Shown here piece by piece: positions 4,143 through 17,897 of a stretch of DNA of 19,014 bases (position 1 is its first letter; each line of letters begins with the position of its first letter). This DNA is from a virus. Its lineage: Duplodnaviria > Heunggongvirae > Uroviricota > Caudoviricetes. Under the pieces are notes generated by a model. It saw only the letters and a list, made by a program, of their open reading frames with translations, had not been told where the DNA came from and searched no databases. A program made the position numbers and the translations under genes. The stretch covers positions 1-19,014 of IMG/VR virus record IMGVR_UViG_2645727905_000013. One strand, 5' to 3'.

Positions 4143-4469
4143 TTACTCCTTAGAGCCACCAAACTTGTTACCGATCACTCTCATTGCAGCCCCACGAATT
4201 GCATCGACACCAATCAGCCCAACACCGCCACCAATGGCAACAGAAAGAGATTTAGGCCATCCGACATACTCAAGAGCGGATGCAAAAGTCAGCGTCAGAG
4301 CACCACAGAGCAAAATCTCGAGCGTTTTTCGCTTCCACCCACCACCACCGCCAAAATAGGCAATGCGCAATCCAGCCATAACAATCGACATAATCACTGC
4401 GCCAAGAGGCGTATCTCCACGCCACCAGCTCTGGAACAACTCCAGCCAGGTATTTGGGTTATGAGGCAT
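4143..4469 (-). CDS. Holin, lambda S family (class I)
   Basis: 108 aa with hydrophobic helices and a charged C-terminus. Segment LRIAYFGGGGGWKRKTLEILLCGALTL parallels lambda S [24 protein letters not shown]. It lies directly upstream of the R-like ORF. Confidence 0.65.
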   Translation of the reverse strand: MPHNPNTWLELFQSWWRGDTPLGAVIMSIVMAGLRIAYFGGGGGWKRKTLEILLCGALTLTFASALEYVGWPKSLSVAIGGGVGLIGVDAIRGAAMRVIGNKFGGSKE

Positions 4470-4622
4470 TTGTAGTTATCTCTCACCTCGCCGATACAGG
4501 AGGTGTAAATTGAGGGAGTACCACGAACCGCAAATCAGAAGCGGAAACGTAAAAGAAGTCGAGCCAATGGATAAGTACTAGATAGACCAAGCCCAACGAA
4601 TACCAAGGCCCAGAAAAGACAA

Positions 4623-4645
4623 AACCCGCTCAATGGCGGGTTTAA
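4623..4645 (-). terminator. Intrinsic terminator hairpin upstream of holin (tR'-like candidate)
   Basis: Perfect 8-bp inverted repeat aaacccgc/gcgggttt with a 6-nt loop; on the minus strand it is followed by a T-rich tract (tgtcttttct). Confidence 0.4.
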
Positions 4646-4725
4646 GCTGTGTGGCGAAGTAACCACTCTTAACAGATTACAAGAATTTTTGCGGACCGCG
4701 TTAATGATTTTTAATCCCAAAGTCG

Positions 4726-4754
4726 TATTATTCGTTTTTTACTGTAGGAGTTAA
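4726..4754 (-). promoter_or_regulatory. Candidate sigma70 late promoter (pR'-like) reading toward the lysis genes
   Basis: Minus strand: TTAACT (-35), 17-nt spacer, ATAATA (-10). Located about 75-95 nt upstream of the hairpin terminator and about 250 nt upstream of the holin. Confidence 0.3.
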
Positions 4755-4759
4755 CAGGT
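4740..4759. promoter_or_regulatory. LexA (SOS) box-like motif TACTGT-N8-ACAG
   Basis: Sequence tACTGTaggagttaACAGgt has the conserved CTGT and ACAG arms at canonical 8-nt spacing, with an imperfect central region. It sits 10 nt upstream of the KAP NTPase ATG and overlaps the opposite-strand promoter candidate. Confidence 0.3.
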
Positions 4760-4766
4760 TTATATT

Positions 4767-5609
4767 ATGTTAGATACACTATCGTTCACTGAACGTGACG
4801 AGTTCCAACGAAGAAACATCGCTGAAAATATCATCAAGTTGCTAAAACCAGAGGCAGACATTTCACCACTGGTAATAGATGGCGCATGGGGAACAGGGAA
4901 ATCAGAATTTAGTATCAAACTGAAAAATCTCATTATTGAGCAAGAACCCGAATCTAAAGTTGTTTATATTGATGCCTTTAAAGGGGATCATGCAGAATCT
5001 CCATTACTTCTCATAACCTCTGCAATTGCCAGCATTTTGCCTGAGGAAGAAAAACAACACTTCATTAAGAGGTCTCTTCCTGCAATTCGATTTGGTTTAA
5101 AAACTGTACTAAAAGCTGGTGCAGGTTGGTTTTTACGACAGGAGGCTAGTGAAGTTGCCGAAGAATTCCAAGATGCGATGAAGAAAGCAAGCAATGCAGC
5201 AATAGATGGGACTATTGAAAGTTTGCTTGAAGACCATATGGAATCAGAGAAAAACATAAATTCACTTAAATCTTGCATCGAAAGTATTTCAGAAAATCAA
5301 AAGATAGTAATTATAATTGATGAATTAGATCGATGTAAGCCGAGTTTTTCAACAAATGTCATTGAAACAATAAAACACATTTTTGACATCAATAATGTCT
5401 TTTTTATTTTAGTTACAAACACAGAACAATTAAGAGCATCGATAAATCATATTTATGGTTATAGTATTAACTCACAAAAGTATCTTGACAAGTTTATAAA
5501 ATATACCATCACGCTTCCAGATACATGTTTGATAAATGGTCACGACGTATGTAAAGCCTCTGTTATATATTGGAATTACCTTGTAGAAAAAAACAAGATC
5601 ATTAAATGA
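4767..5609 (+). CDS. KAP-family P-loop NTPase, N-terminal part (Walker A and B present); gene appears frameshifted
   Basis: Walker A VIDGAWGTGKSEF (GxWGxGKS type) and Walker B IVIIIDELDRC (DELDRC) are the KAP NTPase signatures. AT-rich composition. Encoded on the opposite strand between Q and the lysis genes. Confidence 0.7.
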   Translation: MLDTLSFTERDEFQRRNIAENIIKLLKPEADISPLVIDGAWGTGKSEFSIKLKNLIIEQEPESKVVYIDAFKGDHAESPLLLITSAIASILPEEEKQHFIKRSLPAIRFGLKTVLKAGAGWFLRQEASEVAEEFQDAMKKASNAAIDGTIESLLEDHMESEKNINSLKSCIESISENQKIVIIIDELDRCKPSFSTNVIETIKHIFDINNVFFILVTNTEQLRASINHIYGYSINSQKYLDKFIKYTITLPDTCLINGHDVCKASVIYWNYLVEKNKIIK

Positions 5610-5757
5610 AATCAATAGCTTATCAGGTTATTTTATCCGTGATTTAATTCAACGAACCAACTTATCATTACGTGAAACACAAACATTTTCACGCAATCTT
5701 AACATTTTTCAACTGTTAAACGACAATGAAGACAACAGTAGTGATCGTTTTATAAAT

Positions 5758-6099
5758 ATGATCTTTGTCGTAGCTGTCTTCATACATTGCTTTGGTGACA
5801 AGGAAAAACTAAAACACGAAATTACCGCTGAATCTATATCTTATTTAGCAGACCTGCTTAAAATAAAAGAGATACCTTATTCTTATGAGATGAGTTCGAA
5901 AATCCCTAAAATATCAATTGTATTCTTTGGAATAATTAAAGACAGTATTACTCTTAATGAGCGATTTGCTCCTAAAAGTGATGAAGAACTAAAAAGATTC
6001 ACCAAAGTTTATACTGATTATGACCACCTAAATTTTTGGAGTACTACACCCAGAGAGTTATTGATAAAATATATCAATCAAATGTCATTCATTCAGTAA
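5758..6099 (+). CDS. Probable C-terminal continuation of the KAP NTPase gene in the +1 frame
   Basis: This frame is open from 5587 (just after a TAG at 5584-5586) through 6099, overlapping the end of the upstream ORF. Deleting one A from the A7 run (5587-5593) fuses the two ORFs into about 443 aa. The first ATG is only at 5758. Confidence 0.4.
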   Translation: MIFVVAVFIHCFGDKEKLKHEITAESISYLADLLKIKEIPYSYEMSSKIPKISIVFFGIIKDSITLNERFAPKSDEELKRFTKVYTDYDHLNFWSTTPRELLIKYINQMSFIQ

Positions 6100-6101
6100 A
6101 T

Positions 6102-6126
6102 AATACGCCCCTGCATGGGGCGTATT
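6102..6126. terminator. Bidirectional intrinsic terminator between convergent KAP moron and Q gene
   Basis: Perfect 10-bp stem aatacgcccc/ggggcgtatt with a 5-nt loop, flanked by T-rich tracts on both strands (tttattaaa on plus; ttattta on minus). Confidence 0.55.
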
Positions 6127-6129
6127 TTA

Positions 6130-6495
6130 TTAAACGTCCAAATCTAATGTTAGATCTAGCATGGAAAGGCAGCCATCAATAAATCCTTCGGCTAACTGTA
6201 TTTCTATACGTATCAATTTCTCATCCTTTCCACGCGCCTTTGCAATCTTACGCTTGGATATTCTGTATAAATAATGTGCCACAAGAAGCGAATGCTCATA
6301 AGGTCTTTTTTGCTTTAGACGAGCAAGACAACCTTCAATAATTAATGCATCACTATCCGAACAAGCCAAGCGTTTCTTGCTGGTATAGGGAAGAAGTCCC
6401 TTAAACCCAGCAGCTATAGGTGAATAATCAACACCAGAGTTATCACTCGCAGCCCATGCTCCCCAACGTTCAAGTATCATCTGAATATCACGCAT
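6130..6495 (-). CDS. Late-gene antitermination protein Q (QuuD / phage 82 Q-like family)
   Basis: MRDIQMILERWGAWAA...IAAGFKGL closely matches the recalled N-terminus of E. coli DLP12 QuuD. Start placed at the ATG at 6493-6495, which has an AGAAAGG SD; the ORF-track start codon at 6508-6510 is TTG. Confidence 0.75.
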   Translation of the reverse strand: MRDIQMILERWGAWAASDNSGVDYSPIAAGFKGLLPYTSKKRLACSDSDALIIEGCLARLKQKRPYEHSLLVAHYLYRISKRKIAKARGKDEKLIRIEIQLAEGFIDGCLSMLDLTLDLDV

Positions 6496-6512
6496 CACCT
6501 TTCTCCACAAAA

Positions 6513-8338: not shown

Positions 8339-8728
8339 TCAGGCGGCTGCACCCGCCGTTTTCTCGTACTTACTGATAGTGATCTCGACCTTCCCTTCCG
8401 GGATAACCGGTCCCCACTCCACCAGCATTCTTTTCACCTGACTGTCGTCTTCCCACACACCCGCGTGGGTCAGGGCGTCAAACAGCGCCTTGTTATAGTT
8501 GTCCAGATCGCGGATCCGGTTATCCGGAGGAAACAACACGATCTCCACTGAAGCAGGTGCCGACGTTGGTTTTGGCAGACGACGTAACTGCTCAACTATT
8601 GCTGCACACGCTGCGCTCTGGAATTTGCGCCCCGCCGCGCTTATCAGGCTCTTACCTGCAAACGCCCCTTTGTTGGGGTGTCGCCAGTACGTGTTCACGC
8701 TGGGCGGGAAAGGCAGGATCAGCTTCAT
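8339..8728 (-). CDS. rusA: Holliday junction resolvase RusA
   Basis: 129 aa; ...PPSVNTYWRHPNKG...RDLDNYNKALFDALTHAGVWEDDSQV... parallels E. coli RusA (PPSNNRYYRH...[27 protein letters not shown]). Its ATG overlaps the stop of the upstream gene. Confidence 0.8.
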   Translation of the reverse strand: MKLILPFPPSVNTYWRHPNKGAFAGKSLISAAGRKFQSAACAAIVEQLRRLPKPTSAPASVEIVLFPPDNRIRDLDNYNKALFDALTHAGVWEDDSQVKRMLVEWGPVIPEGKVEITISKYEKTAGAAA

Positions 8729-9051
8729 ACTTTCAGGCCCCTCTCATGTAACCAGTGGGCTGCACGCAGCCTGGCGTTTTCCTCACCGGCAAGCAGTGAG
8801 CGGATAATCCCGACCGCCTCGCTGTCGTCGTCCTTCACCGCGGTATGAAGCGTTATCCCCCGGGCCACGCCACGCTTTATCGTGATGACGCCTTTTTTCT
8901 CCAGCGCACGAAGATGCTCCACCGCTGCATTCACCGAACGGTATCCCAGCATGGTTGCCACCTCCTGATTGGTTGGTGGGAAGCCACGTTCTTTCTGATA
9001 AGAAATCAGCATATCCAGCACCTGCTGCTGGCATTGAGTTAACGTCGTCAT
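8725..9051 (-). CDS. LexA N-terminal DNA-binding-domain-only protein (no S24 peptidase domain)
   Basis: MTTLTQCQQQVLDMLISYQKERGFPPTNQEVATMLGYRSVNAAVEHLRALEKKGVITIKRGVARGITL aligns with the LexA N-terminus ([68 protein letters not shown]). It retains an AGE linker motif but ends about 25 aa later. Start (ATG at 9049-9051) overlaps the upstream stop (TAATG). Confidence 0.65.
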   Translation of the reverse strand: MTTLTQCQQQVLDMLISYQKERGFPPTNQEVATMLGYRSVNAAVEHLRALEKKGVITIKRGVARGITLHTAVKDDDSEAVGIIRSLLAGEENARLRAAHWLHERGLKV

Positions 9052-9545
9052 TAAGCCCCCACGTAATTCCCTGACAGATACCACTCTTCACCCGATGCAG
9101 CGCGCTTGCTGCTTTTCCGTAAGCACCGCTCACGACGCGCCAGAAAATTGTTTCGTTCTGGCTGGGAGTGGCTTTCACGGAATGCCGCCATCCACACGGT
9201 TGCAGCACGACGAAATAAGCCCCTGGACTCCAGTTCTTCCGCCTGGCGGGCCAGGCACAAAATCACCCGCGGGTCGTTAGTGCCGACATAGAAATTGCGC
9301 ACAGGTCTGGTTTCACGAACTGGTTGCCGTTCCGCCTCCGGAGATATCTTTGTCTGGCGCGGGAAATGTCTGCGTGTATCCCCTTCACAACGGTGAGCCA
9401 CACGCCCACTCTGACGTAACTTGCTTGCTGACTGCAGAACGCGCTGCCGTGAGTAACCTGCAAAAGCATCAGCAATGTCTCCGGAAGTACCCCCTGGATG
9501 GGCTTCAATGAATTTCTGAACTTCATTCAAAAGACTCATAATCAC
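9051..9545 (-). CDS. Hypothetical regulator; C-terminal region PerC/ANR-like
   Basis: 164-aa ORF whose ATG overlaps the stop of the replication gene (ATGA). C-terminal ARQAEELESRGLFRRAATVWMAAF...RRERCL resembles the recalled PerC/Pch motif GLWRRAAxRW. The N-terminal half may be a winged helix. Confidence 0.4.
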   Translation of the reverse strand: MIMSLLNEVQKFIEAHPGGTSGDIADAFAGYSRQRVLQSASKLRQSGRVAHRCEGDTRRHFPRQTKISPEAERQPVRETRPVRNFYVGTNDPRVILCLARQAEELESRGLFRRAATVWMAAFRESHSQPERNNFLARRERCLRKSSKRAASGEEWYLSGNYVGA

Positions 9546-11720: not shown

Positions 11721-12347
11721 ATGGAAACGGTTGGTCAGCGTATAAAAGCTCTGAGAAGAGTAACCAGAACGTCCCAGAAAGAATTGGGTAAATTTTGTGG
11801 AGTAAGCGACGTTGCTGTGGGGTACTGGGAGAAAGACATCAATACCCCTGGTGGGGAGGCACTTTCGAAATTAGCGAAGTTCTTCAATACGTCAATAGAT
11901 TACATTCTTTATGGTGCTGAGTTTGAAGGCAAACTCGTCACAAACATGCGCAGAGTTCCTGTAATATCGTGGGTTCAGGCTGGGCAGTTTACTGAGTGCA
12001 GGGCAGCAGAAGTGTTTAGTGAAGTGGACAAGTGGGTAGATACATCATTAAAGATTGGTGATAACTCATTTGCATTAGAGGTTAAAGGTGACTCCATGAC
12101 TAACCCTAATGGCCTCCCAACAATACCAGAAGGCGCAACAGTGATTGTAGATCCAGATGCAGAACCTCGTCATGGAAAAATAGTCATCGCTCGACTTGAT
12201 GGAACAAACGAAGCTACAGTAAAAAAATTAGTCATCGATGGCCCTCAAAAGTTTTTAGTGCCATTAAATCCTCGGTATCCCAACATCCCTATCAATGGTA
12301 ATTGCCTTATCATTGGTGTAGTCAAAGGAGTTCAATACGAACTCTAA
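11721..12347 (+). CDS. cI: CI-like prophage repressor (HTH-XRE N-domain plus S24 LexA-type autopeptidase C-domain)
   Basis: N-terminal HTH (QKELGKFCGVSDVAVGYWEKD), a putative Ala-Gly cleavage site (VQAGQF), catalytic Ser in GDSM and Lys in TVKKL. Confidence 0.85.
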   Translation: METVGQRIKALRRVTRTSQKELGKFCGVSDVAVGYWEKDINTPGGEALSKLAKFFNTSIDYILYGAEFEGKLVTNMRRVPVISWVQAGQFTECRAAEVFSEVDKWVDTSLKIGDNSFALEVKGDSMTNPNGLPTIPEGATVIVDPDAEPRHGKIVIARLDGTNEATVKKLVIDGPQKFLVPLNPRYPNIPINGNCLIIGVVKGVQYEL

Positions 12348-12843: not shown

Positions 12844-13122
12844 GGAAGCAGACGGAAGTAAGCATGCGCTTTGTTCAAATTTGCAGACAAATATATTTGC
12901 GTCAACACCAGCACTGTTAGCAATGGAAAAAGTTTGATCAAGGATTTGTTGGCAGTTCATTGTGCTTTTGAGGATATATCCCTCTGGAATCAGTCTGCAG
13001 CAGCTATCGTCAGACTCTTTGATTGTTTTCTGGTACAGAAAGTTAAGCATTAATTCTTCAAATTTTTTGGTCTGTTCGGCTGTTGCTTCAAACAGACGAA
13101 CGTGAACATAAAACTGGTTCAT
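12781..13122 (-). CDS. Hypothetical protein encoded antisense to the early-left operon (immunity-region moron candidate)
   Basis: ORF with an AGGAAA SD 5 nt upstream of the ATG at 13120-13122 (protein MNQFYVHVRLFEATAEQ...). Relatively AT-rich. Convergent with 12535..12843, overlapping it by 63 nt. Confidence 0.35.
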   Translation of the reverse strand: MNQFYVHVRLFEATAEQTKKFEELMLNFLYQKTIKESDDSCCRLIPEGYILKSTMNCQQILDQTFSIANSAGVDANIFVCKFEQSACLLPSASLVGNDFVHHDLTPKPIKLDS

Positions 13123-15359: not shown

Positions 15360-15620
15360 ATGAGGTTATCAAAAATGCTTCAAATGCTGACACTTGAGGA
15401 ATGGGCTACGGAAAAATACAGAAGTAATCCTCCAAGTGTGTCCACATTGCGTCGTTATGCTAAGCAGAATTTATTTTGTCCACCGGCAATGAAACAAGGT
15501 CGACTATGGCGAGTGCGTGAGGACGCAGAGTTAGTTGGGGAATTAGTTACTCCTGTCATCAAGAAAAGTGATTCTATTATTCTACAAAGGATTTTAAGTA
15601 ATGGCAGCCAGACCACGTAA
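15360..15620 (+). CDS. xis: Excisionase (lambda Xis-like)
   Basis: LTLEEWATEKYRSNPPSVSTLRRYAKQNLFCPPAMKQGRLWRV parallels lambda Xis (YLTLQEWNARQRRPRSLETVRRWVRECRIFPPPVKDGREYLF). Overlaps the integrase start by 20 nt. Start may be the internal ATG at 15375 or 15384. Confidence 0.7.
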   Translation: MRLSKMLQMLTLEEWATEKYRSNPPSVSTLRRYAKQNLFCPPAMKQGRLWRVREDAELVGELVTPVIKKSDSIILQRILSNGSQTT

Positions 15621-16728
15621 AAATAATGTTTCAGTCCCGAACTTGTATCCGCTCTATAGCAGAAAAGTAAATAAAGTCTATTGGCGATATAAGCATCCAG
15701 TGACCGGGAAGTTTCATTCTTTGGGCACAAACGAAGCTGAAGCCATTGCTATTGCCACTGAGGCCAATACACGCCTGGCTGAGCAAAGAACCCGGCAGAT
15801 TCTGGCTATCAGTGACAGGATCGCAACCAGCAAAGGAAAAGCGATAACAACATCAACATGGTTAGACCGCTACCAGGCCATCCAGGATGACAGGCTGAAA
15901 AGTGGTGATATAAGACTCAACACCTATAAGCAGAAAGCCAAACCAGTATCCTTGCTCAGGGAACGAGCAGGAATGAAATTGATTTCAGCTGTTGATGTCA
16001 GGGATATAGCACAATTGCTTGACGAGTATATCGCTGCCGGGCAACCGAGAATGGCCCAAGTTGTAAGGTCTGTATTGATTGATGTGTTTAAGGAAGCACA
16101 GCACTATGGCGAAGTTCCGCCAGGGTATAACCCTGCTCTTGCGACGAAGCAACCCAGAAGGAAAATTACCCGTCAACGCCTCAGCCTGGAAGAATGGCAA
16201 AAAATCTTTGATATCGCAGATGCCAGTCATCGTTATATGGGAAATGCCATGCTGTTAGCACTGGTTACTGGCCAGCGGTTAGGTGATATTTCGCGTATGA
16301 AATTTAGCGATATTTGGGATGATCATCTTCACGTCATTCAGGAAAAGACCGGGAGCAAAATCGCCATCCCGCTTTCTCTTCGCCTCAATGCGATTAACTG
16401 GAGTTTACGCGATGTAGTATCCCGCTGCCGTGACTATGCAGTCAGCCCATACCTTGTACATTTTTTCCGTACGACTTCACAGGCTGAACGTGGCGCACAG
16501 GTTAAATCCAATACATTGACGATGAATTTCAGTAAAGCGAGGGATTTTGCAGGAATTGACTGGGGTGATGGCTCACCCGCAACATTCCATGAACAAAGGT
16601 CTTTATCTGAACGTCTGTACAAAGAACAGGGGTTAGACACACAAAAACTACTTGGTCATAAAACGCAACAACAAACCGATCGTTATCATGACGATCGCGG
16701 CAAAGGATGGAGCAAAGTTGCGTTGTGA
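15601..16728 (+). CDS. int: Tyrosine site-specific integrase, lambda Int family
   Basis: 375 aa. N-terminal arm-binding region (VPNLYPLYSRK...HPVTGKFHSLG) and C-terminal catalytic region (TFHEQRSLSERLYKEQ...LLGHKTQQQTDRYHDDRG) parallel lambda Int (PPNLYIRNNG..., TFHELRSLSARLYEKQ...LLGHKSDTMASQYRDDRG). Confidence 0.9.
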   Translation: MAARPRKNNVSVPNLYPLYSRKVNKVYWRYKHPVTGKFHSLGTNEAEAIAIATEANTRLAEQRTRQILAISDRIATSKGKAITTSTWLDRYQAIQDDRLKSGDIRLNTYKQKAKPVSLLRERAGMKLISAVDVRDIAQLLDEYIAAGQPRMAQVVRSVLIDVFKEAQHYGEVPPGYNPALATKQPRRKITRQRLSLEEWQKIFDIADASHRYMGNAMLLALVTGQRLGDISRMKFSDIWDDHLHVIQEKTGSKIAIPLSLRLNAINWSLRDVVSRCRDYAVSPYLVHFFRTTSQAERGAQVKSNTLTMNFSKARDFAGIDWGDGSPATFHEQRSLSERLYKEQGLDTQKLLGHKTQQQTDRYHDDRGKGWSKVAL

Positions 16729-16976: not shown

Positions 16977-17897
16977 ATGTTACATAAAAAAACAACACAA
17001 GAAAATGTAGCTTTTGGACTTGCTGTACTTAACTACTATCTTCGTTTCAATTCTAAAGCGAATTTACAGGACGCTAATGTAAGTTCAGAGGAGTTGATAA
17101 GTAATTTAGTAAATATTCTGAATGATAGTGATTTTATCTGCACATCGGAAATCTCAGCAAATTATCCAGGAATAGATGCTATCGATAAAGTAAATAGACT
17201 CGGGCTCCAGATAACACATACAAAAACCAATTCAAAAATTAATAAAACAATAGATAGAATTCGCGAAAATAAAGTTAACAATGAAATTGGTGTGCTATAT
17301 TTTTTCATTACATCAAGAAAGCAGAAGAAATACACTATCACAGCACAATGCCCAAATCTAAACGTCACAACAAATAACATATTGGACTTTGATTCCCTAG
17401 CTGAACTGCTTTCGAAAAATCAGAATAAACTGGCTCAAGCAGAAGCAGAACTTATTAAAGCAATGCCTCGTCTCTACCAAGATGGAAAAGCACGACATGA
17501 GGCTATGCTTAATAGTATTCTTGTGGCCAGAAATGAATTAGATAGAAGAGTATTCACTGCTGATAAAATTTTAGAAGAACCAGAGGAAATGCTTTTATCC
17601 CTCAGGGAAATGAGAATAGCCATACAAAAAGCAGGAATAATGAATGAAGCTAATTCTGTTGTATCTACTTCATTTAAAAAAATAATTAAAATTATTAATG
17701 ATGCAGAGGGTCAAATTGCAAAAAAACATACCAGTGGATATAAAAAATATAAGGCCAGAATATTTCCCTCGTGGGATTATACTGATAGAGATGATTGTTT
17801 AAATATTTTAATGGGGATAAGAAAAGATGTTTTAGACCAAATAGATATTATTGACATTGAGATCAATAAACTGAAAGGGTTTCTTGGAATACGGTAA
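16977..17897 (+). CDS. Hypothetical protein with SMEK-like N-terminal domain and helical C-terminal half (candidate defence-associated)
   Basis: 306-aa AT-rich ORF. N-terminal region (...SANYPGIDAIDKVNRLGLQITHTKTNSKINKTIDRI...GVLYFFITS) resembles, from memory, the SMEK-type domain pattern (AIDLGD...IAFQVTS). C-terminal half is predicted helical/coiled-coil. SD AAGGTGG upstream. Confidence 0.45.
   Translation: MLHKKTTQENVAFGLAVLNYYLRFNSKANLQDANVSSEELISNLVNILNDSDFICTSEISANYPGIDAIDKVNRLGLQITHTKTNSKINKTIDRIRENKVNNEIGVLYFFITSRKQKKYTITAQCPNLNVTTNNILDFDSLAELLSKNQNKLAQAEAELIKAMPRLYQDGKARHEAMLNSILVARNELDRRVFTADKILEEPEEMLLSLREMRIAIQKAGIMNEANSVVSTSFKKIIKIINDAEGQIAKKHTSGYKKYKARIFPSWDYTDRDDCLNILMGIRKDVLDQIDIIDIEINKLKGFLGIR

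Follow-up and report, generated by a model that had tools for sequence, protein, structure and literature searches.

The weak SOS boxes of Escherichia coli, among them those of polB/dinA (heterology index, HI, 12.09), dinB (HI 12.85) and the site ACCTGTAGGATCGTACAGGT (HI 12.6), are promoter-proximal 20-bp palindromes of the form CTG-N10-CAG with a G/C-containing spacer and an HI of 12-13 on the published scale, and they are bound by LexA experimentally. In experimental tests the binders reach 12.1 (polB) and 12.6 (ACCTGTAGGATCGTACAGGT) and the non-binders begin at 15.5; cut-offs of 13.2 and 14.8 are given in the supplement of the same study (PMC12527982). The usual distance between a validated SOS box and the ATG is 8-80 nt (PMC8072944 Table 1). 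Prophages also carry LexA-controlled genes: boxes upstream of the Gifsy dinI copies (HI 3.9-4.6; PMC8072944 Table 1) and of the Gifsy antirepressors (PMC3121763) couple the expression of this cargo to DNA damage. The late side of lambdoid prophages has its own reference systems in the Stx-phage PR'-tR' unit of the StxS region, for which the Sakai PR' start and tR' end were mapped 258 nt apart (Sy et al., PMC7547250), and in the Q21 family, whose Q-binding element (QBE) lies between -35 and -10 (PMC6606751).

Here we compare with these systems a LexA-box-like palindrome, TACTGTAGGAGTTAACAGGT (4740..4759, unstranded; core CTGT-N8-ACAG at 4742-4757), found in a 19,014-nt stretch of viral DNA (hereafter the window, in whose coordinates all positions are given). 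It shares with the weak E. coli boxes the 20-bp palindrome, the CTG-N10-CAG arms with their G/C-containing spacer, the published-scale HI of 12-13 and a position close to the predicted promoter of its gene, and with the Gifsy boxes it shares a place upstream of a non-structural prophage gene. Whereas the weak E. coli boxes are bound by LexA, the window’s candidate is polymorphic at an invariant arm position and absent from orthologs; whereas the Gifsy boxes are strong (HI ~4) and have been shown to respond to DNA damage, the candidate sits at the weak limit and is not conserved. We conclude that the box is probably an incidental near-match rather than a conserved or selected LexA operator; at most it would be a weak LexA site restricted to one allele.

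As a whole, the window represents a lambdoid prophage of E. coli/Shigella/Salmonella type. Its early-right and late genes are on the minus strand and comprise P22-Cro-like, CII-like, replication and PerC-like genes, a protein consisting of a LexA DNA-binding domain (LexA-DBD), RusA, KilA-N, DUF968, Q and the holin. The antiterminator Q (6130..6510, minus strand; PF06530) is distantly Q21-like, and the lambda-family holin is encoded at 4143-4469 on the same strand. The prophage repressor at 11721-12347 is of the cI type, an HTH domain joined to a Peptidase_S24 domain, so that prophage induction would not need LexA boxes. Between Q and the holin, on the plus strand, lies a gene for a KAP-family P-loop NTPase (4767..6099; PF07693, E=6e-65). 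This protein matches the PADLOC candidate defence family PDC-S20 (PDLC04956) over its full length (E=4.5e-177, residues 3-442 of an intact relative) and also resembles F-plasmid PifA (E=6e-18); PDC-S20 is itself only a candidate defence family. LexA regulation is not known for the PDC-S20 family, and none was found in the other members analysed here.

The KAP moron was seen in 42 complete E. coli genomes, and in Salmonella a protein cluster of 2,139 members represents it. E. coli XH988 and 30 IMG/VR contigs carry the KAP gene in intact form, encoding 443 aa. In the window, its reading frame is broken by a 1-nt insertion (A7 at 5581-5587 versus A6 in the nearest relatives, L017 and L018) that leaves two open reading frames, 4767-5609 and 5758-6099; the extra A is either a pseudogene mutation or a homopolymer sequencing error. 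A bidirectional terminator hairpin, ACGCCCC-ATGCA-GGGGCGT (6103..6125), stands between the convergent stop codons of Q (6130) and KAP (6099) and marks the right-hand limit of the moron cassette, with an analogous terminator beside the Q stop in phage cdtI. At the other end of the cassette, similarity to other lambdoid phages ends at ~4712, just before 54 nt of moron-specific DNA (4713..4766, plus strand) that include the box and were found only in KAP-bearing contigs.

The CTGT-N8-ACAG arms are present where the preliminary description had placed them, at 4742-4757 inside tACTGTaggagttaACAGgt (4740-4759), 10 nt ahead of the KAP ATG at 4767. That description had also reported, from a scan by eye, no other full match to the pattern, and here it was mistaken: a second one, GGCTGTTGCTTCAAACAGAC, occurs at 13080-13095 among ymfI/yfdP-type early-left genes, with an HI of 19.06 that puts it in the non-binder range. 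The box was first scored with a matrix of our own, derived from 18 validated boxes of PMC3009722 Table 4, which gave an HI of 12.9-13.5 at a chance rate of 35-55%. This matrix was replaced by the published Lewis matrix, which favours the box more. The symmetric Lewis matrix was recovered exactly by regression on 145 pairs of sequence and HI for candidate boxes of E. coli K-12 (PMC12527982 Table S1), with an RMSE of 2e-5 and with the values of recA (4.31) and polB (12.09) reproduced. On this scale the box has an HI of 12.32, which falls between the validated weak binders polB (12.1) and ACCTGTAGGATCGTACAGGT (12.6), lies inside the range of validated binders and passes the 13.2 cut-off, so that by a LexA matrix it does not fall short of the threshold of validated SOS boxes. 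Its lead over the rest of the window is almost 4 HI units, the runner-up scoring 16.08 and no other site falling under 16.

The bare CTGT-N8-ACAG pattern is expected 0.25 times per window and occurred at least twice in 8 of 200 shuffles. The expected number of sites with HI <=12.33 per 19 kb ranges from 0.075 by Markov-1 simulation to 0.16 by exact 0-order calculation, and an equally good site arises by chance in 7.5-15% of windows of the same composition; for the 297-nt intergenic region the expectation is 0.003. The occurrence of the box is thus moderately unusual, not overwhelmingly so.

The position of the box relative to KAP is best described through the predicted promoter of that gene. 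A putative -10, TATTAT (4726..4731, plus strand), has its T1, A2, T3 and T6 invariant in E. coli, Salmonella, Citrobacter, Enterobacter and Klebsiella and is preceded by a weak -35, ATGATT (4704-4709, plus strand). [quoted passage not shown] The probable Shine-Dalgarno core AGG (4756..4758, plus strand) lies 8 nt before the ATG and overlaps the right arm of the box; orthologs have GGA at this position (TTAAGGA/TAATGGA). In the reading we prefer, KAP would be an opposite-strand cargo gene inserted between the Q stop codon and the late promoter pR', most likely transcribed from its own sigma-70 promoter in divergence from pR', with the two -35 regions back-to-back. The 20-mer would then be the first ~20 nt of the KAP leader, which would take in the box and the AGG ribosome-binding site before reaching the ATG at 4767. 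In prophages with the ACAG arm LexA may bind weakly and dampen KAP transcription, which the element would not require in order to work.

A stronger role for host LexA is possible, if doubtful. In this account LexA would bind the ACAG box at ~+1 to +21 of the KAP promoter and repress the gene as long as the cell is undamaged, RecA-stimulated cleavage of LexA after DNA damage would derepress it, and alleles with ATAG in place of ACAG would be operator-constitutive. The HI in the validated range, the perfect arms, the rank of the box as the best site in the window and the chance of only ~0.003 in the intergenic region are all in its favour, as are the placement right after the conserved -10 of KAP, where operators classically sit, and the spacer ‘AGGA...’, which resembles that of the validated 12.6 site. 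The distance of 10 nt from the ATG is likewise within the 8-80 nt common for validated boxes (PMC8072944). Against it, the KAP frame is broken in the window and the KAP TSS is a prediction. A functional box would bring a candidate defence gene on a prophage under SOS induction, a modest addition to the LexA regulon. The box arms might also act in the RNA, as a hairpin over the ribosome-binding site in which the C-to-U change turns a G-C pair into a G.U pair. This reading was rejected: the leader folds no better than shuffles (z = +0.68), and the arms are unpaired in its MFE fold. Among the leaders only a hairpin of the Klebsiella ortholog stands out.

Variation within close relatives was assessed in 30 loci that share this KAP gene (protein identity 93-100%). 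Across this set hardly any change occurs in the 130 nt that precede KAP. Nonetheless 14 of the 30 loci have T in place of the C of CAG in the right arm (position 4755), so that the arm reads ATAG, and the palindrome with its CTG(T)-N8/10-(A)CAG arms is kept in only 16. The matrix treats CAG as invariant, so that the ATAG allele comes out at 16.67, which is a non-binder value (the lowest validated non-binder is at 15.5). The T occurs in two haplogroups ~52 differences apart, and a C is found in locus L006 at 1 difference from a T haplotype; position 4755 has therefore changed more than once, or recombined. A second polymorphism of the box, T/C at 4759, has its C allele in Salmonella and the L020 group and raises the HI to 13.66, in the uncertain zone. 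Of the 5 positions that vary in the 90 nt upstream of KAP, 2 belong to the 20-nt box, which therefore shows no more constraint than the sequence around it. For an operator that LexA uses to hold KAP down, recurrent knock-out alleles at ~47% frequency and the weakening by 4759C in the L020/Salmonella group are unfavourable. The same survey also yields a point in favour of such an operator, in that the most divergent KAP haplogroup (L020-L028) has C at 4755; the E. coli/Salmonella lineage could thus have started out with the box and lost it afterwards.

Comparison beyond this lineage was made with orthologs retrieved by a search for contigs encoding KAP homologs. Prophages of Citrobacter, Enterobacter and Klebsiella carry KAP homologs of 61-66% identity in the same position, convergent with a PF06530 Q and facing the late region. 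Within 350 nt upstream of these orthologs no box was found in any of the three genera: the best HI is 18.5-25, and the left arm has no counterpart. The same loci still keep the pR' block, the KAP -10 and the GGA ribosome-binding site. In the upstream alignment the invariant columns form two clusters, one over the block TGCGGnCCGCGTTAnTG / TTAC / TTA (4669-4706) and the other at GTAT..T (4725-4728 and 4731). A further 79 more distant KAP loci, obtained by an alignment-based search of genome contigs, have no upstream box either, the median best HI being 23.1 upstream and 23.1 in control regions; a search of genome contigs with a single KAP protein gave no matches. A scan of IMG/VR for the pattern of the box plus its flank returned only KAP-bearing contigs, all already known through KAP, and so no new context. 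As an observation on a leader of its own, the Klebsiella KAP leader (L126/L127, ~2468-2492) contains a perfect inverted repeat of 8 bp, CTTAACAA-N5-TTGTTAAG, which shares bases with the ribosome-binding site and folds at -9.8 kcal/mol (z = -1.8); it may be a lineage-specific translational or operator element.

These comparisons bear directly on whether LexA controls KAP, as the preliminary description had proposed. The score of the box is adequate for such control and its position relative to KAP plausible, but there is no detectable constraint on the box, ATAG is present in 14 of 30 loci and the three other genera have no box. The lack of a box in orthologs of three genera and in 79 distant homologs counts against a LexA operator that governs KAP. 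Regulatory turnover between genera is common, however, and absence in the orthologs is therefore compatible with a function specific to one lineage. We nevertheless favour an incidental near-match, because the box is confined to the E. coli/Salmonella lineage, has been altered by recurrent C-to-T change in about half of its copies there, and is absent where orthologs keep the other elements of the region. The value of this result is mainly corrective: a sequence can pass a LexA matrix threshold and fail every evolutionary test.

The preliminary description had offered a second potential regulator of the box in the prophage’s own LexA-DBD protein. The gene is real (8725..9051, minus strand; 108 aa from the ATG or 119 aa from an upstream GTG at 9084; PF01726, E=3.7e-19), and its product aligns to LexA residues 2-86 (E ~1e-15). 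The recognition helix reads RSVNAAVEHL against RSPNAAEEHL in LexA, with S39, N41, A42 and E45 kept, and this near-identity makes binding to CTGT-type half-sites conceivable. A motif ‘LAGE’ aligns with the Ala84-Gly85 cleavage region of LexA, and the S24 peptidase domain is absent from the protein. By its sequence the protein could thus be an SOS-box binder unable to autocleave as LexA does. A literature search found no report on a LexA-DBD-only protein or on LexA control of KAP genes.

It is nonetheless quite improbable that the box serves as the target of this protein. In such a scheme induction would lead to its synthesis from the early-right operon, and with host LexA cleaved it would shut KAP down again, perhaps together with host SOS genes. 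Such a role would suit the retained recognition-helix residues, the missing S24 domain and the fact that the protein is encoded in the same prophage as the box. However, the supposed tie between box and protein finds no echo in their distribution: the C allele occurs with the gene in 4 cases and without it in 2, the T allele with it in 5 and without it in 1, so that the two do not co-vary, and E. coli XH988 combines the gene with the ATAG allele. The isolated N-terminal domain of LexA binds DNA poorly without dimerisation, and the 35-aa tail of the prophage protein has no known dimerisation function. Moreover, the window holds no other site under HI 16 and therefore no regulon-like set of sites for the protein. 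The two repressors could also be combined into one circuit, in which host LexA would hold KAP low in the lysogen and the LexA-DBD protein would take over the same box, and possibly host SOS boxes, after SOS cleavage; we consider the chances of this slim indeed. If true, KAP, a potentially toxic protein of the abortive-infection type, would not abort the phage’s own lytic growth, and the ATAG alleles would be escape variants.

On the opposite strand the box had been linked to a late promoter for the lysis genes, TTAACT-17-ATAATA. The hexamers are indeed present on the minus strand (TTAACT at 4754-4749 and AATAAT/ATAATA at 4732-4726, 16/17 nt apart, with 9/12 consensus matches), yet the assignment to the lysis genes does not hold, the conserved pR' being at 4704-4676. 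As a late promoter we rejected the TTAACT candidate, which lies in moron-specific DNA, is absent from phages that share the Q/pR' block and is not conserved in the orthologs. By homology we place pR' at 4676..4704 (minus strand), with a -35 TTAACG (4704-4699), a 17-nt spacer, a -10 TGTAAT (4681-4676) and a TSS at ~4669 (range 4670-4668). Its spacer contains a palindrome, GCGGACCGC (4691-4699), that is invariant in five genera except at the central base and is a plausible candidate Q-binding element, since the QBE of the Q21 family lies between -35 and -10. Promoter-like hits number 12 in the 2.5-kb region, where 7.3 +/- 2.7 are expected.

The start site of pR' was positioned through the Sakai mapping. 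A distance of 258 nt, measured backwards from the second terminator's T tract in the Sakai prophages Sp5 and Sp15, leads to GATA[A]GAGTGG, inside the invariant core of the block, and the Sakai PR' TSS falls in the invariant GATAAGAGTGG; the genome version used by the mapping study (PMC7547250) is shifted against the current record by 142 and 135 nt, two offsets that agree with each other. The block as a whole (4621-4712) is homologous in SfII, SfIV, cdtI, 1720a-02 and many Stx phages, and the homology stops at 4712. In terms of the Stx-phage unit, window positions 4712-4621 correspond to the promoter and the first ~50 nt of the transcript, and the two share the -35/-10 positions, the invariant TAAGAGTGGTTAC start region and a hairpin with a U tract. 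That hairpin, an intrinsic-terminator-like structure with a T tract, AAACCCGCC-ATTGAG-CGGGTTT TGTCTTTTCT (4622..4643, minus strand), occupies ~+26 to +50 of the pR' transcript and is a tR'-like element ahead of the holin gene. The arrangements differ in that the block overlaps the 3' end of Q in Sakai Sp5 and Sp15, with the RNA running to a second terminator at +258, whereas in the window a 1.4-kb opposite-strand KAP cassette lies between Q and the block. Ahead of the holin the window shows no second terminator. The homologous hairpin of Sakai (L040, ~1065-1095) is read through, given that the mapped RNA is 258 nt long and ends at the second terminator.

With its TSS at ~4669, pR' leaves the box at -71 to -90; the box is therefore outside the core promoter and cannot occlude pR', overlapping neither the region from -35 to +1 nor the Q-loading region. 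In favour of the proposal that LexA on the box would occlude TTAACT-17-ATAATA, and with it expression of the lysis genes, the hexamers exist (9/12), and the box overlaps the -35 and the spacer of the candidate. The candidate is nevertheless in moron-specific DNA that the orthologs do not conserve, the conserved pR', positioned by the mapped Sakai TSS, lies 45-80 nt further downstream on the late strand, and RNA started at the candidate would run into the same terminator while lacking the geometry for Q loading. We regard the proposal as scarcely credible. Under the preferred reading, in which the 20-mer belongs to the leader of KAP, the box would have no direct role at the late promoter.

Two other assignments in this region were set aside. 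The conserved block is not the 74-nt StxS small RNA, as it represents the promoter and 5' end of the 258-nt Sakai RNA and not its 3' 74 nt. A pR' at the 3' end of Q, with a transcript antisense through KAP, is disfavoured because the bidirectional terminator abuts the Q stop, the DNA of the Q 3' end is not conserved and the promoter elements of the block are invariant across genera. A comparison with Rfam gave only sub-threshold terminator hits (P9 at 16.4 bits versus a gathering score of 43; Hrs10 at 17.5 versus 108), and a full-text literature search for the conserved core sequence found no paper. For this prophage family, the analysis moves the late promoter to a conserved block that Stx phages share.

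With pR' placed in the block, the junction between Q and its promoter can be compared among phages. In 1720a-02 and Stx2_14040 (L034/L037) the Q stop codon directly abuts the pR' block. Opposite-strand genes stand between Q and the block in cdtI (two; L033), SfIV (one; L035) and the Stx1a phage Stx1_14040 (three; L038), and the KAP and cdtI cassettes bring their own terminator beside Q. Opposite-strand cargo has thus entered repeatedly at the Q stop/pR' junction, which looks like a hotspot for lambdoid morons or defence genes. The placement of pR' and the recognition of this cargo junction should be useful for the annotation of lambdoid prophages and for searches for defence hotspots.

Further cargo was observed elsewhere in these prophages. 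In the Citrobacter prophages with a KAP ortholog, the nin region encodes a DinI-family protein (L121/L122, 6260-6335) where the window has the LexA-DBD gene, so that different SOS-related cargo occupies a similar position in the two. At the prophage end of the window, beside a lambda-type integrase (15601-16728), lies the gene for a SMEK-domain protein (16977-17897, plus strand; PF21941, E=2e-24), which may be another cargo or defence gene.
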